Assembly: GCA_963775955.1 (NCBI GenBank)
Contig: CAVZKT010000002.1
Location: 160,474-224,473 of the forward strand
DNA from: Candidatus Moraniibacteriota bacterium
GTDB lineage: Bacteria > Patescibacteriota > Minisyncoccia > Moranbacterales > UBA2206
Direction: 5' to 3'
DNA: 64,000 nt
Made by a program: the position numbers and the translations under genes. Positions 6,669 through 64,000 of the stretch are shown here, piece after piece. The first letter of the stretch is position 1, and each line of letters begins with the position of its first letter. The notes beneath the pieces were generated by a model. It had not been told where the DNA came from and ran no database searches. It saw only the letters and a list, made by a program, of their open reading frames with translations.

Positions 6669-7936
6669 ATGCAACATTTCGAAATTCAGGGCGGAAAAAA
6701 GCTTAAAGGAAGGATAGACGTGAGGGGGTCAAAGAACGCCACAACGCCTATTTTAGCTGCGACTTTGCTTACCCGAAAAAAATGCGTTATTTCCAATATT
6801 CCTCTAATTGAGGATGTTTTTCGGATGATTGAAATTCTGGAAAGTTTGGGCGCGGAAATTAAATGGCTGGGAGAAAGAAAAGTTTCAGTGCGGGCGAAAA
6901 ATATTCAGCCGGAAAAAATAAATATTGAAAAAGTCAAATTATTGCGCTCATCTATTTTGCTTCTGGGACCGCTTAGCGCGAGATTCAATAAATTCAAACT
7001 TTATCATCCCGGGCGGGTGTGTCATTGGCAGCCGGCCGGTGGGCACGCATTTTAGAGCACTGGAAAAATTGAGCGTGAGGATCAAGCAGGATGGAAAAAA
7101 ATATATCATTGACGCAAAAAACAAAAAAGCGGGAAAGGCGGTTTTGGGAGAAATGTCGGTGACAGCTACGGAGAACGCGATGATGCTGGCTGCCAATATG
7201 CCCGGAAAAACAATTATTAAAATTGCCGCCTGCGAACCGCACGTTTGCGATTTAGGAAAATTCCTGGTTTCAATGGGCGCTAAAATAAAAGGGCTGGGAA
7301 CGCACACTTTGGAAATTGTCGGTTCAAAAAATTTAAAAGGCGCGAAACATGAAATTATTCCCGATGCCAATGAGGCGGCGACATTTTTGATTCTAGCTGC
7401 GGCGAATAAGAGCTCGATAAAAGTAATTAATGCCAGAGAAAACGATCTGGATTTGGTTTTGGAAAAACTCAGAGAGTTTGGAGTTGGTTTCAAAATTGAA
7501 AAAAATTCCATTACTGTTATCCCGGCTAAAAAATTGAAAGCGGTCGCGAAAGTTGATACCCGCACTTATCCGGGAGTGCCGTCGGACGTGCAGGCTCCGT
7601 TCGGTATTTTGGCGACGCAGGCGGAAGGCCGGACACTAATTCATGATTCGCTCTATGAGGGCAGATTTAATTATGTTTGCGAGCTTGTAAAAATGGGCGC
7701 CAAAGCGAAAGTGCTGGATGCGCATCGGGTTATAATTGAGGGTCCGGCAAAATTAAAAGGCAAGGTTATTAAAAGTTTTGATCTGCGCGCCGGAGCGTCA
7801 CTTGATTATCGCCGCGCTTCTGGCTAAAGGCAAAACAACCATTAAAGATATTTATCAAGTTGACCGCGGCTATGAAAAAATTGAAGAAAGATTGCAAAAA
7901 CTAGGTGCGGATATTAAGAGAGTTGAAAGTTTATAA
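6669..7936 (+). CDS. murA: UDP-N-acetylglucosamine 1-carboxyvinyltransferase MurA, reading frame broken by two apparent 1-nt indels (~7005 and ~7790)
   Basis: The three frame pieces together give full-length Mur[32 protein letters not shown]...; [18 protein letters not shown]-terminus [43 protein letters not shown]. First shift is at a TTT run. Confidence 0.8.
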
Positions 7937-7974
7937 AGTCCATCAAGTCCATCAAGTTCATAAAGTTAAAAGTT

Positions 7975-8419
7975 GTGAGAAAGAAAAAAGCCGGGGAAAA
8001 ATACATAGGAGTCGGAGGGGGAATTTTAATTTTCAATAAAAAAGGAGAGGTTTTATTGATGAAGCGAGGCAAAAATTCCAGCAATGAGATAGGCTGGTGG
8101 AACTCAGCCAGGAGGGACCATTGAATTTGGAGAAAAAGCGGTGGAAGGACTTAAAAGAGAAATAAAAGAGGAGTTGAATATAAATGTTAAAATCTGGGGC
8201 TATGCTCCGCATGTGGATCATATTATTAAAAGAGAAAAACAGCACTGGATCGCGATTATTTTTTTAGCGGATCTAAAGAGCGAGACGCCGAAAATTATGG
8301 AACCGCATAAATGCGATGAAATAAAATGGTTCGATTTAAAAAAATTACCAAAAAAATTGACGCAATCAACAAGAGAGCCAATTGAAAATTATTTAAAAGG
8401 AAAATATATTAAATTGTAA
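7975..8419 (+). CDS. NUDIX hydrolase (probable GTG start), one frameshift near 8100
   Basis: GVGGGILIFNKKGEVLLMKRGKN...IGWW then PGGTIEFGEKAVEGLKREIKEELN (Nudix box GX5EX7REUXEEXGU) in the +1 frame. Confidence 0.6.
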
Positions 8420-8423
8420 TTTT

Positions 8424-9433
8424 ATGCCTTTATTTGTGCGGAAAATTGGAATTGATCTAGGAACAGCAAATACGCTGGTTTTTGTGCCAGGCAAAGGAGT
8501 GGTGGTGAACGAGCCGTCGGTGGTGGCGATTTCGATTTTGGATAATAAGGTTTTGGCGGTGGGAAATGATGCTAAGGAAATGCTCGGGCGCACGCCGGAT
8601 ACGATTGTGGCCAGCCGGCCAATGAAAGACGGAGTCATTGCCGATTACCGCATCACAGAAGCCATGCTTAAATATTTTATCAATAAGGTCAGCGGAAAAA
8701 TCCGCTTGATACGTCCGGAAATCATGATTTCCATTCCGGCGGGAGTAACTTCCACGGAAAGAAGAGCGGTGATTGACGCGGCGGTGCGCGCGGGAGCCAA
8801 GGCCGCTTATGTGGTCAAGGAACCGGTGTTGGCGGCCATCGGCGCCGGCATTCCGATTAATTCTCCAGCGGGAAATATGATAATTGACATTGGCGGAGGA
8901 ACTTCGGAAGTCGCGATCATATCTCTGGGCGGAATTGTGGCGGCGCACAGCGCGCGGGTGGGCGGAAATAAGCTGGATCAGGCGATTTCCGACTACATCA
9001 AAAGAAAACACGGCTTGGCAATTGGGGAAAGGACGGCCGAAGAAATAAAAATCAAAATCGGCTCAGCCATTGCCCAAGTGAAAGAAGAATATATGGAAGT
9101 GCGGGGTCGCGATCTTACCGGCGGTTTGCCGAAGACGGTAAAAATTTCTTCCAACGAAATCACAGAAGCGCTGCAGGATGAGCTGCGCGAAATTATCAAT
9201 ACCATCAAAAAGGTTTTGCAGGATACTCCGCCGGAGCTGGCCGCGGATGTTATGGACAAGGGCATGGTGCTTTCCGGAGGCGGGGCGCTTCTGCGCCACA
9301 TTGACCAGTTGATTACCAAGACAATCGAGGTGCCGTGTTATGTGGCGGATGATCCGCTTTATCTGCGTTATTAAAGGCATTGGGATCGCTCTTGGATAAT
9401 TTGGACGTGTATAAGGACGATAATGCTAACTAA
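8424..9433 (+). CDS. mreB: rod-shape determining protein MreB; C-terminal 25 codons in shifted frames (two indels ~9352 and ~9395)
   Basis: IGIDLGTANTLVFV...DGVIADY...IIDIGGGTSEVAIISLGG, typical actin-like MreB. The conserved tail CVIKGIGIAL/DNLDVYKDDNAN is only found by frame switching. Confidence 0.85.
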
Positions 9434-9461
9434 TGCGTAAGTAGACTTATCGTAAAAATAA

Positions 9462-62074: not shown

Positions 62075-62437
62075 ATGACACAAGAAAACAGTTTCCGTAT
62101 TTTTTTCAAAGGCGTGAAAATTGACGAGCGGACCGAGGATTATATTAAGAAAAGACTGGCAACGCTGGAAAAACTTTTGGACAAAATCCTGCGCGTAGAA
62201 GTGGAGATAGATTTGGACAAAAAAGGAAAGTTTCGGGCGGAAGTTATGGTGAAAACTCCCTACCAGCTATACCGCGCCGAGGAAACAACGGAAAGCATTG
62301 AAGGTTCAATTGATATGGTTTCAGAGCAACTCAAGGTGCAAATTCGAAAGGACAAAGATCGCGTGGTGGCTCTCCGCCGCCGGGGCGGGAGATCCATTAA
62401 AAAGAAGATAACCATAGACCAAAACGCAAGATTTTAA
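62075..62437 (+). CDS. hpf: ribosome hibernation promoting factor / RaiA (S30EA family)
   Basis: IDERTEDYIKKRLATLEKLLDKILRVEVEIDLDKKGKFRAEVMVKTPYQLYRAEETTESIEGSIDMVSEQLKVQIRK. Confidence 0.8.
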   Translation: MTQENSFRIFFKGVKIDERTEDYIKKRLATLEKLLDKILRVEVEIDLDKKGKFRAEVMVKTPYQLYRAEETTESIEGSIDMVSEQLKVQIRKDKDRVVALRRRGGRSIKKKITIDQNARF

Positions 62438-62466
62438 TGATTTAAAAAATAAAAACAAAAATATTT

Positions 62467-62575
62467 ACCCCGTTAGAATAAAGATTTGTTTTTTGATGGG
62501 GTTAGGTTCTAATAATTTATATCATTTTATACTATTGTTTTTTAAACAAGTAATAGTACAAAATTCTAACGGGGT
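62467..62575. mobile_element. Family A miniature inverted-repeat element, copy A4 (ACCCCGTTAGAAT ... ATTCTAACGGGGT)
   Basis: 13-nt inverted termini. Internal ggggttaggttctaa submotif. Overlaps the annotated start of the next ORF. Confidence 0.65.
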
Positions 62576-62930
62576 GAACACGCCCGTAAAAACCTGGATC
62601 GGGGTAACTATAATAATCGCCGCGGCGGTTATGGCTGGAATGTCTATTTGGTACTGCCAAAAGAATTACGTAATTAATTACGTAAATATTGAAACGCCGC
62701 AAATAAATAAAAAAGCTTGCACTGAAGAAGCGAAAGTTTGTCCCGACGGCAGCGCCGTCGGCCGCACCGGGCCGAATTGCGAATTCGCGCCTTGCTTCGG
62801 CGAAGGAAAGGATATGGTCGGCAATGACCGCGATGAGCACGGCTGCATTGGATCCGCCGGATATTCCTGGTGCGAAGAAAAACAAAAGTGCCTGCGGACT
62901 TGGGAAGAATCCTGCGGGACAGAAGAATGA
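62493..62930 (+). CDS. hypothetical small Cys-rich secreted protein (start uncertain, probably downstream of element A4)
   Basis: TM/signal IGVTIIIAAAVMAGMSIWY; 8 cysteines in the C-terminal 80 aa. Confidence 0.45.
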   Translation: MMGLGSNNLYHFILLFFKQVIVQNSNGVNTPVKTWIGVTIIIAAAVMAGMSIWYCQKNYVINYVNIETPQINKKACTEEAKVCPDGSAVGRTGPNCEFAPCFGEGKDMVGNDRDEHGCIGSAGYSWCEEKQKCLRTWEESCGTEE

Positions 62931-63056
62931 CAAATGATTATAAAAAGAATCCTTTCCGATTTTAAATTTATAAATTAACAATCGTTTAGAAAAGCCTTTC
63001 ATCTTTGACTCGGGAGGCTTTTTTTGGTAGGATGAAAGGGTATTAAAATATTTAGA

Positions 63057-64000
63057 ATGGCTTTTTTTACGAAACTTTTTGGCTCAAATCAGCGGGAAAT
63101 TGGTAAACTTCATTCAGTTGTTGAGAAGATTAATTCTTTCGAACCGGACATTCAGAAACTTTCCGACGAGGAGCTGAAAAATAAAACCCAAGAATTTAGA
63201 GAGCGAATCGCTAAAGGATGAAACTCCGGATGATATCTTCCGGAGGCTTTTGCGGTGGTCCGCGAAGCGGTGAAGAGAGTTATAAATGAAAGGCTTTTTG
63301 ATGTTCAGCTTATGGGCGGCATCGTTTTGCATCGAGGGAAAATCGCCGAAATGAAAACCGGTGAAGGAAAAACGCAGACTGCCACTTTGCCGATTTATCT
63401 CAACGCGTTTACCGGCAAAGGCGTGCATGTGGTCACCGTCAATGATTATCTGGCCAAGCGCGACTGCAACTGGATGGGGCCGATTTATCATTTTCTGGGG
63501 CTTTCGACGGCTTGCATCATGCACGACGCTTCTTATATCTACGAACCAAAAATACATGATGCCGATGAAGTGAGCGTGGAAATGGAAAATCTGAAGCCGG
63601 TTTCGCGCCGCGAGGCCTATGCGGCCGATATCACATATGGCACAAACAATGAATTCGGTTTTGATTATCTGCGCGACAATATGGTGCAGAGCTTGGAGCA
63701 GATGGTGCAGCGAGAACTGAATTATGCCATTGTCGACGAAGTGGACTCAATTTTGATTGATGAAGCCCGCACGCCGCTCATCATCAGCGCGCCGGACACG
63801 GAATCAACCAAACTATATCAGCAATTTGCCCAAATTGTGCCGCGGCTCAAAGAAGACGAAGATTTCGACAGTGGATGAAAAAATGCGGGCTGTGACGCTC
63901 ACGGAAAAAGGAATTGCAAAAGTGGAAGAAATGCTGGGCATCGGAAATATTTATGACATCTGGCAAAATCTCCTATGTCCATCAGCTCGAGCAGGCCTTG
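63057..64000 (+). CDS. secA: preprotein translocase ATPase SecA, 5' ~940 nt (continues beyond window), with at least 4 apparent indels (~63215, ~63240, ~63875, ~63965)
   Basis: [18 protein letters not shown]...; [74 protein letters not shown]; later [14 protein letters not shown] and [11 protein letters not shown] in other frames. Confidence 0.85.

Follow-up and report, generated by a model that had tools for sequence, protein, structure and literature searches.

Several core genes of this uncultured CPR bacterium, a Moranbacteria/Parcubacteria MAG, murA, mreB, murG, tsf and secA among them, appear on the deposited contig as fragments in neighbouring reading frames, which raises the question of whether the indels that break them belong to the organism or to its sequence. 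Across the window, by which we mean the whole 64,000-nt (64-kb) stretch that was analysed, about 31 indels affect 11 genes (21 of +1, eight of -1 and two of -2 nt). The public gene calls on the deposited 360,084-bp contig are identical broken fragments, so the frame breaks are features of the deposit itself and nothing was added after deposition. We conclude that they are very probably consensus errors of the deposited assembly and not mutations of the organism, and our verdict is one of an ordinary assembly artefact. This reading is supported by the alleles of an independent (Logan) assembly at two sites, by Pfam coverage and conserved columns in the repaired proteins, and by the damaged secA of another contig, contig_2997. 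A preliminary description of this DNA had likewise preferred consensus error to real loss of MurA, MreB, MurG, EF-Ts and SecA; that preference is upheld, but the homopolymer cause offered for it is not.

Breaks were established from blastx pieces and frameshift-aware alignments, and in prfA and the endonuclease gene the frames were read by hand; event positions are partly ranges. Segmentation of the window by codon-usage frame was too noisy to place shifts. The genes named in the preliminary description are each split over adjacent frames into pieces collinear with a single ortholog, and all of them are broken, but its list undercounted the events and lacked both the worst-hit gene, for a GT4-family glycosyltransferase, and a hypothetical 411-aa gene. 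In murA (UDP-GlcNAc 1-carboxyvinyltransferase; 6669..7936, plus strand) the two breaks claimed were located by alignment as two +1 events, one at 7007-7014 (CCCGGGC, where the closest relative has GG instead of GGG) and the other at 7800-7804. The murA pieces match one 425-aa ortholog with E values of 3e-61, 9e-140 and 9e-140, and the repaired product of 421 aa covers PF00275 from 1 to 417 of 417, where the deposited call, P0011, is a 224-aa fragment ending in a frameshifted tail. The Nudix hydrolase gene (8005..8419, plus strand; PF00293 match) has the one break attributed to it, a +1 event at 8101-8104. Two breaks had been counted in mreB (8424..9440, plus strand), which is indeed broken but by three events within its final 80 nt, also placed by DNA alignment to the relative L001: a +1 (extra C) near 9363 (9361-9363), a second +1 (extra C) near 9391 (9390-9395) and a -2 at 9413-9416. 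Their net frame change is 0, yet a stop at 9372-9374 cuts the called protein to the deposited 316-aa fragment; after repair, PF06723 is covered from 3 to 324 of 327. The GT4 gene (9469..10661, plus strand) is the densest event patch of the window: some 9-11 events, insertions as well as deletions, fall between 9612 and 10640. Its pieces are spread over three frames and all align to a single 394-aa ortholog, and the repaired protein is full-length with that ortholog, free of in-frame stops and matched by PF13439 and PF00534. An intact second GT4 gene adjoins it at 10986-12272.

The same pattern recurs further along the window. A single break had been assigned to prfA (36872..37937, minus strand), which encodes RF1 with PET as its P-x-T motif; the gene is broken, but three events lie in its last ~45 codons (36948-37010), namely +1 within 36998-37010, +1 within 36973-36985 and -1 within 36948-36960. 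Repaired prfA covers PF03462 from 1 to 194 of 194 and PF00472 from 1 to 116 of 116. Manual frame reading recovered the two breaks reported in the EcoRV-family restriction endonuclease (39110..39898, plus strand), one +1 event at 39332-39336, in a T5 run, and one -1 event near 39430, in an A run; the repaired enzyme covers PF09233 from 3 to 243 of 244 and an intact methylase adjoins it. The one break described in tsf (EF-Ts; 43866..44451, plus strand; PF00889 match) is a +1 event at 44189-44192, and the two in murG (54334..55439, plus strand) are +1 events at 54418-54421 (GGGC) and 55326-55334. MurG is deposited as a 293-aa fragment, and both PF03033 and PF04101 are complete once it is repaired. 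The 5' part of secA, which runs beyond the window end (63057..64000, plus strand), has four events (+1 at 63218-63219, -1 at 63236-63240, +1 at 63869 and +1 at 63961) and a deposited call of 207 aa, and its repaired part matches PF07517 and PF01043. At least four breaks with a compensating pair 25 nt apart had been claimed here; the four events and the pair, formed by the first two and spaced ~18 nt apart, are present.

Direct comparison with other data comes from six Logan contigs of public run ERR10755944, which cover 27.6 kb (43%) of the window. Two of the 31 events, at 12584 and 18700, fall inside the covered sequence, and at both the Logan allele restores the frame. Both sites lie in contig L162, which spans window positions 12311-19291 with 0 mismatches and four indels over 6,980 nt. 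The one break claimed in holB (DNA polymerase III delta-prime; 12350..13268, plus strand) is a single event, a 2-nt deletion at 12584, where the window reads GGGG--AAAAAA and L162 reads GGGGAGAAAAAA. In the 411-aa gene (17919..19155, plus strand) the window reads GGG at 18700-18702, one G more than the GG of Logan. The Logan contigs are not a clean truth set, having frame-breaking indels of their own, two of which are in L162. Thus holB is broken in both the window and the Logan versions, at different sites, and its intact ORF combines the Logan allele at 12584 with the window allele (A7) at 12600, the repaired protein covering PF13177 from 2 to 160 of 161. Similarly, the 411-aa gene is called as a 266-aa fragment in the deposit and as 355 aa in Logan, and is intact only if the Logan allele is taken at 18700 and that of the window at 18900. 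Since holB and the 411-aa gene each need one allele from either assembly, each assembly has its own indel errors; population indel variants may be the source of some differences.

The remaining 29 of the 31 sites are outside the independent assembly, and there the artefact reading rests on indirect evidence. The other event clusters are in regions for which Logan offers no usable gene calls: the k-mer assembly of ERR10755944 is fragmentary over this genome, the broken genes lack substantial gene calls, and exact look-ups for Logan contigs over the broken genes (FtsW, S2, a 409-aa protein, MurA and SecA fragments and a 257-aa protein) found none. When the MurA and SecA pieces were used as protein queries, no near-identical copy was returned beyond the deposit's own fragments, and a near-identical genome sought in genome and metagenome collections yielded different species only. 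In these collection scans the best relative, L001, has 80-87% nucleotide identity and the best FtsW match has 75% amino acid identity. The orthologs, both those of ~160 related loci and those in the protein database, are each encoded by one unshifted ORF. Damage of the same kind is found in contig_2997 of ERZ25039524, a long contig, named in Flye style, from a different CPR genome, in which secA is cut by five similar indels, four of them insertions and 0 in homopolymers.

What the repaired genes encode bears directly on whether the breaks are real. The repaired proteins match their ortholog and Pfam profile over the full length, each profile being covered by one unbroken stretch that crosses the junctions. 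When deviations were counted at columns whose conservation across orthologs is at least 95%, the repaired genes deviated at 0-2 columns (MurA 2/150, MreB 2/203, MurG 2/94, SecA 0/120) and intact neighbours at 0-4 (RodA 4/81, MurC 4/132). Relaxed selection in the repaired genes would be expressed as excess changes at conserved columns or as in-frame stops, and neither was seen; as the repaired proteins deviate no more than intact neighbours, there is no sign of decay, nor of substitution errors. Judged from their sequences, the genes behind the indels look fully functional once repaired.

The distribution of the events is informative about their origin. They had been described as pervasive, single-nucleotide frameshifts, mostly at homopolymer runs, and none of these terms was confirmed. 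Two of the events are 2-nt deletions. The frameshift rate per kb, checked over the window, is far from uniform: per-kb event counts have a variance/mean ratio of 4.2, indicating strong clustering, 16 of 30 inter-event gaps are shorter than 150 nt against 2.2 expected, and one stretch of 18.2 kb is free of events (P ~4e-4). Events come in compensating groups that span tens of nucleotides, and insertions are about twice as many as deletions. About 9-10 of the 31 events (~30%) are in runs of at least 3, which hold 28.7% of all bases as background, and the 425 runs of at least 6 in the window contain about one event between them. Runs are thus not enriched for events, and the long ones are almost free of them, so that homopolymer-prone chemistry is not supported as the cause. 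Low coverage, the other cause suggested, fits better, given that the errors are patchy and the k-mer assembly is fragmentary over this genome. No sequence motif common to the sites, slippery or methylation-related, survived multiple-test correction, the best 6-mer around them having P ~1.5e-4 before correction for 488 tests. The idea that each inserted base is the other allele of a SNP at a third codon position, placed in tandem, was also considered and dropped, because the placement of shifts at codon boundaries is set by the aligner; nor does site 18700 fit.

A plausible course of events would begin with a contig derived from a long-read consensus, as the Flye-style 'contig_N' names in a sibling record suggest. 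Such a consensus would probably contain patches of thin or conflicting read support, in which stochastic indels might be kept, with insertions outnumbering deletions about two to one, no context preference and almost no substitutions, while well-supported stretches would stay clean. Strain heterogeneity may add misalignment-driven indels to the collapsed consensus. The population is heterogeneous, with four to nine SNPs per Logan contig in L163-L165 against the window and 0.1-0.5% SNPs in some regions, but SNP density does not follow indel density (seven SNPs and 0 indels in L165; 0 SNPs and four indels in L162).

Among the alternatives, the one that survives best is a mixed case, in which most breaks are assembly errors and some are real inactivations of dispensable genes, namely those for the EcoRV-like endonuclease and the GT4 glycosyltransferase. 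Real inactivation of such genes is not implausible, as they are dispensable, and loss of an endonuclease with its methylase retained is common. The endonuclease events, moreover, lie in the T5 and A runs, which are natural slippage sites, and no other gene approaches the event density of the GT4 gene, which has an intact GT4 gene beside it. Yet both repaired proteins match their profiles, and a pseudogene old enough to have gathered ~10 indels should carry many substitutions and some stops; the GT4 reconstruction is full-length and stop-free. The GT4 patch also adjoins, without a break, the patch formed by the three events of mreB, an essential gene just 100 nt upstream, which indicates a single bad stretch of sequence. 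We therefore regard the mixed case as unlikely. That the indels are true mutations and the essential genes really broken, through recent decay of the genome or in a defective lineage, is very improbable. Both the deposited contig and its gene calls do contain the indels, and holB is broken in both assemblies, though at different sites, but the intact allele in the other assembly at both sites within its coverage, the restriction of differences between window and L162 to indels and the compensating clusters within tens of nucleotides all speak against decay, as does the lack of in-frame stops and of excess substitutions at conserved columns. Joint loss of murA, murG, secA, tsf, prfA and holB is incompatible with growth. 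It is scarcely credible, too, that the indels are real in a bacterium that tolerates, or bypasses in translation, numerous frameshifts in core genes, or in a defective lineage complemented by its neighbours. Recoding, by which programmed ribosomal frameshifting or transcriptional slippage would make real frameshifts functionally silent, has a negligible probability: the related gene dnaX uses -1 frameshifting at an A-rich heptamer, and slippage by -1, or addition of one A, at the A6 run where Logan holB breaks would give a full-length product, but the sites share no slippery motif and are mostly outside runs, the shifts are of both signs, include 2-nt events and number up to 11 in one gene, the orthologs in related loci are unshifted, and prfA breaks at its 3' end and not at a prfB-type site.

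The consensus-error reading can be set beside known systems. According to passages of PMC12007338, long-read error rates introduce frameshifts that pseudogenise genes. The window resembles such cases in that genes are split into adjacent-frame fragments, nearly all differences are indels, repair restores full length and a second long contig, contig_2997, has like damage; it differs from the usual account, which stresses homopolymers, in its unenriched runs, insertion bias and very patchy errors. Passages of PMC8445201, on a diploid eukaryote, describe alleles collapsed into one consensus as a source of INDEL errors. The heterogeneous population here is similar, but SNP and indel densities are uncoupled, so that allele or strain collapse is at most a contributing cause. 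Pseudogenes of reductive evolution likewise comprise many frameshifted genes in small-genome, host-dependent lineages; in contrast, core essential genes are affected here, with neither relaxed selection nor stops, and Logan disagrees at both of the two compared sites. The programmed +1 frameshift of prfB (RF2) is also a frame change in a release-factor gene, but the gene broken here encodes RF1 (PET; PCRF and RF-1 domains), with three unconserved shifts at its 3' end.

These errors have consequences for the use of this MAG. Around one-fifth of the genes in the window would be miscalled as pseudogenes or fragments, and estimates of completeness, reconstructions of peptidoglycan synthesis, Sec export and translation factors, and claims of 'genome decay' would go wrong. 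Averaged over the whole contig, the error rate would look too low for the bad patches and too high for the rest. As the events have no link to homopolymers, homopolymer-aware polishing alone would be insufficient.

Two minor observations concern the comparison with Logan. Three of the four differences between L162 and the window have window coordinates that are exact multiples of 100 (12600, 18700 and 18900), and 7800, in the range of the second murA event, is a further such coordinate; polisher windows or tiling were considered as the source and rejected, since neither would produce exact multiples in the coordinates of the output. In the 5S rRNA gene, at 1653, the window has G6 and Logan G5, with covariance scores of 73.3 and 72.5 bits, respectively.

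Comparison of the window with the translated ORFs of 160 related loci by blastx showed that murA, the Nudix gene, a GT4 glycosyltransferase gene, holB, tsf, murG and secA each match successive pieces of single orthologs, lying in different frames of the same strand. Frame-breaking indels (hereafter events) were placed by aligning proteins to the DNA with frameshifts allowed and then searching exhaustively for local repairs, and prfA and the EcoRV-family endonuclease gene, with no ortholog among the 160 loci, were read frame by frame. In total, 31 events were placed in 11 genes: two in murA, one in the Nudix gene, three in mreB, about 9-11 in the glycosyltransferase gene, one in holB, one in the gene of a 411-aa hypothetical protein (17919-19155), three in prfA, two in the endonuclease gene, one in tsf, two in murG and four in secA. 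One extra base accounts for 21 events, one missing base for eight and two missing bases for two, and compensating groups, with members tens of nucleotides apart, occur in the mreB tail (+1, +1, -2), the prfA tail (+1, +1, -1) and secA (+1, -1). All genes named as frame-broken in the preliminary description were thus borne out by collinear ortholog pieces or frame reading, but its list was incomplete, lacking the glycosyltransferase and 411-aa genes, and its counts for mreB (two) and prfA (one) were too low; its description of the breaks as single-nucleotide holds for 29 of the 31 events, two bases being missing in the other two.

Exact look-ups showed that the ORFs of the window are the gene calls of a 360,084-bp NCBI/ENA contig, broken fragments included (MurA 224 aa, MreB 316 aa, MurG 293 aa, HolB 236 aa, SecA 207 aa and a hypothetical protein of 266 aa), and the frame breaks are therefore present in the deposited sequence. 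In the roughly 160 related loci, which stem from other assemblies, each ortholog is a single ORF. The genes of the window are most similar to those of Candidatus Moraniibacteriota and Parcubacteria MAGs; the top genome match, JBAZPT010000001.1 (MreB 96% protein identity, DNA identity 80-87%), keeps synteny from about 1.8 to 23.5 kb.

Our data support the reading of these frame breaks as artefacts. That they reflect consensus indel error and not true loss of genes, as had been suggested from the sequence, is supported by the alleles and gaps of an independent assembly, by the lack of decay and by a sibling record. Once the events were undone in silico, each repaired protein spanned its Pfam profile as a single stretch across the junctions: EPSP_synthase (MurA) at profile positions 1-417 of 417, MreB_Mbl at 3-324 of 327, DNA_pol3_delta2 (HolB) at 2-160 of 161, PCRF and RF-1 (prfA) at 1-194 of 194 and 1-116 of 116, Endonuc-EcoRV at 3-243 of 244, both MurG domains, and SecA_DEAD. 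There is a low probability that a dispensable gene, the endonuclease or the glycosyltransferase, has been truly inactivated among otherwise artefactual breaks, a view favoured by the two endonuclease events, one lying in a T5 run and the other in an A run. True decay of the essential genes conflicts with the independent assembly, with the compensating clusters and with the state of the repaired proteins. At alignment columns at least 95% conserved in up to 40 orthologs, the latter deviate 0-2 times (MurA 2/150, MreB 2/203, MurG 2/94, SecA 0/120, HolB 0/19), with equal or higher values in intact neighbours (RodA 4/81, FtsW 3/153, MurC 4/132, TrmD 3/100). The repaired genes contain no in-frame stops, and these alignments show no relaxed selection.

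Logan contigs of the public run ERR10755944, independent k-mer assemblies retrieved via intact proteins, match the window at 99.5-100% identity; the retrieved set spans 27.6 kb, within which 2 of the 31 events fall. L162 (window 12311-19291) differs by four indels and no substitutions, L161 (56193-62928) by one substitution and no indels, L163 (1234-5687) by four substitutions and two run-length differences, L164 (21732-26546) by nine substitutions and one in-frame 3-nt G-run difference, and L165 (37654-38931) by seven substitutions and no indels. Differences over 7 kb that consist of indels alone, with zero substitutions, are typical of sequencing or consensus error rather than of strain divergence. 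In holB, two bases (GA) are missing from the window at 12584, and the A7 run at 12600 is one A shorter in L162; an uninterrupted, ortholog-aligning HolB is obtained only when the former site is read as in Logan and the latter as in the window. Similarly, 17919-19155 forms a single 411-aa ORF only if Logan is followed at 18700 and the window at 18900. Therefore, Logan carries the intact allele at both checkable window breaks, and each assembly has private indels. No Logan source was found for the deposited MurA, MreB, MurG, HolB and SecA fragments, and no near-identical MurA or SecA in the database besides the deposit's own fragments. The k-mer assembly is fragmentary over this genome and missing at the error clusters, its contigs having been found via intact proteins; such gaps are, indirectly, as expected where reads are few or in conflict.

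Of the four L162 differences, three (12600, 18700 and 18900) have window coordinates that are exact multiples of 100; the frame is kept by the window allele at 12600 and 18900 and by the Logan allele at 18700. The second murA break could likewise lie at 7800. The chance of multiples of 100 in three of the eight Logan-versus-window indels is about 6e-5; neither the remaining Logan differences nor the protein-inferred sites nor contig_2997, a sibling record described below (own coordinates), show the pattern, and no processing model was found to fit it. L163 has T4 and the window T5 at 1526, in the 23S-5S spacer, and G5 versus G6 at 1653, inside the 5S rRNA (covariance scores 72.5 and 73.3 bits, respectively). 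At 21921-21931, G6-C-G4 in the window and G4-C-G3 in L164 differ by a net 3 nt, in frame, giving PGGGE versus PGRE close to the end of a 938-aa gene, either through two run-length errors summing to three by chance or as a genuine strain variant.

The breaks had been described as lying mostly at homopolymer runs, which our placement does not sustain: roughly 9-10 of the 31 events (about 30%) fall in runs of at least three identical bases, against a background of 28.7% of window bases. Long runs are nearly spared: of the 425 runs of at least six, almost all of them A or T, a single one (A6 at 9613) hosts a window event, the A7 at 12600 being an error on the Logan side. Alignment of mreB with JBAZPT010000001.1 DNA revealed ordinary insertions outside runs, for instance TAT[C]TGC and GCT[C]TTG. 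Nor is the frameshift rate per kb, proposed as a check, uniform within the window: events are strongly clustered, with a variance/mean per kb of 4.2 (reached by 0 of 20,000 simulations) and 16 of 30 gaps shorter than 150 nt (2.2 expected). About 14 events fall in the 1.3 kb of 9361-10640, the densest patch, and the stretch from 18.7 to 36.9 kb is free of them (P about 4e-4), every ORF in it being long and uninterrupted. The lack of a significant k-mer or motif common to the sites, the shifts of both signs and sizes, up to 11 in one gene, and the unshifted orthologs contradict programmed frameshifting or transcriptional slippage, and prfA, encoding RF1, is shifted at its 3' end, unlike the programmed frameshift of prfB.

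The errors of the deposit are thus patchy, indel-only and independent of sequence context, with insertions about twice as frequent as deletions. This profile of few substitutions, excess insertions and no homopolymer preference does not match homopolymer-limited chemistry, one of the two causes suggested previously. We infer that the contig was built as a long-read consensus and that some of its stretches had too few or too discordant reads to outvote stochastic indels; the fragmentary Logan assembly suggests low coverage of the organism in ERR10755944. Collapse of closely related strains may contribute indels: SNPs between Logan and window locally reach 0.5%, and PMC8445201 documents collapsed alleles as an INDEL error source. 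Because indel density does not follow SNP density here, strain collapse is at most a contributing cause. A SecA search also returned short fragments on other very long NCBI/ENA contigs. On the sibling record contig_2997 (402,909 bp, Flye-style name) of ENA analysis ERZ25039524, which belongs to another CPR genome, five events of this type break secA (record 114,475-117,077; 6001-8603 of the stretch L166) into pieces of 274, 424 and 93 aa and a short C-terminal remnant; four are single-base insertions, and no event lies in a homopolymer. SecA fragments P0235 and P0300, on contigs of 540-640 kb, may reflect the same problem. The frame breaks of the window are an ordinary assembly-quality problem, whose sole use is as a caution when annotating this MAG.

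At 34351-34936 (minus strand), small ORFs of 80 and 84 aa lie in different frames and resemble the membrane-anchoring N-terminus and the C-terminal part of a single hypothetical protein, and an extra frameshift may lie near 34690; the adjoining upstream kilobase (34.95-36.0 kb) is rich in AT and yielded neither a convincing ORF nor an Rfam match. ORFs of 93 and 284 aa at 40996-42115, in different frames with a 17-nt overlap, could be two genes or one further frameshifted gene. They lie within a low-GC island (0.30-0.36) at 37995-42115 that holds a tyrosine recombinase, the EcoRV-family endonuclease and a Dam-like adenine methylase, the last belonging to a 99-member cluster at 90% identity whose source labels span phyla (Deltaproteobacteria, Paceibacterota); the island looks like a horizontally mobile restriction-modification unit. 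The large Lys/Glu-rich hypothetical proteins (411 and 938 aa) of 17919-21990 (about 3.8 kb) have almost no counterpart at the syntenic place in JBAZPT010000001.1, the match being limited to the last ~80 codons of the 938-aa gene. The window begins inside a 23S rRNA gene (1-1376, partial), followed by 5S rRNA (1564-1679) and, farther on, by four tRNAs. Alignments to relatives' 23S rRNA are interrupted at 300/301, 586-667 and 1064/1065, which suggests that some relatives carry insertions, possibly introns, without counterpart here, or the reverse.
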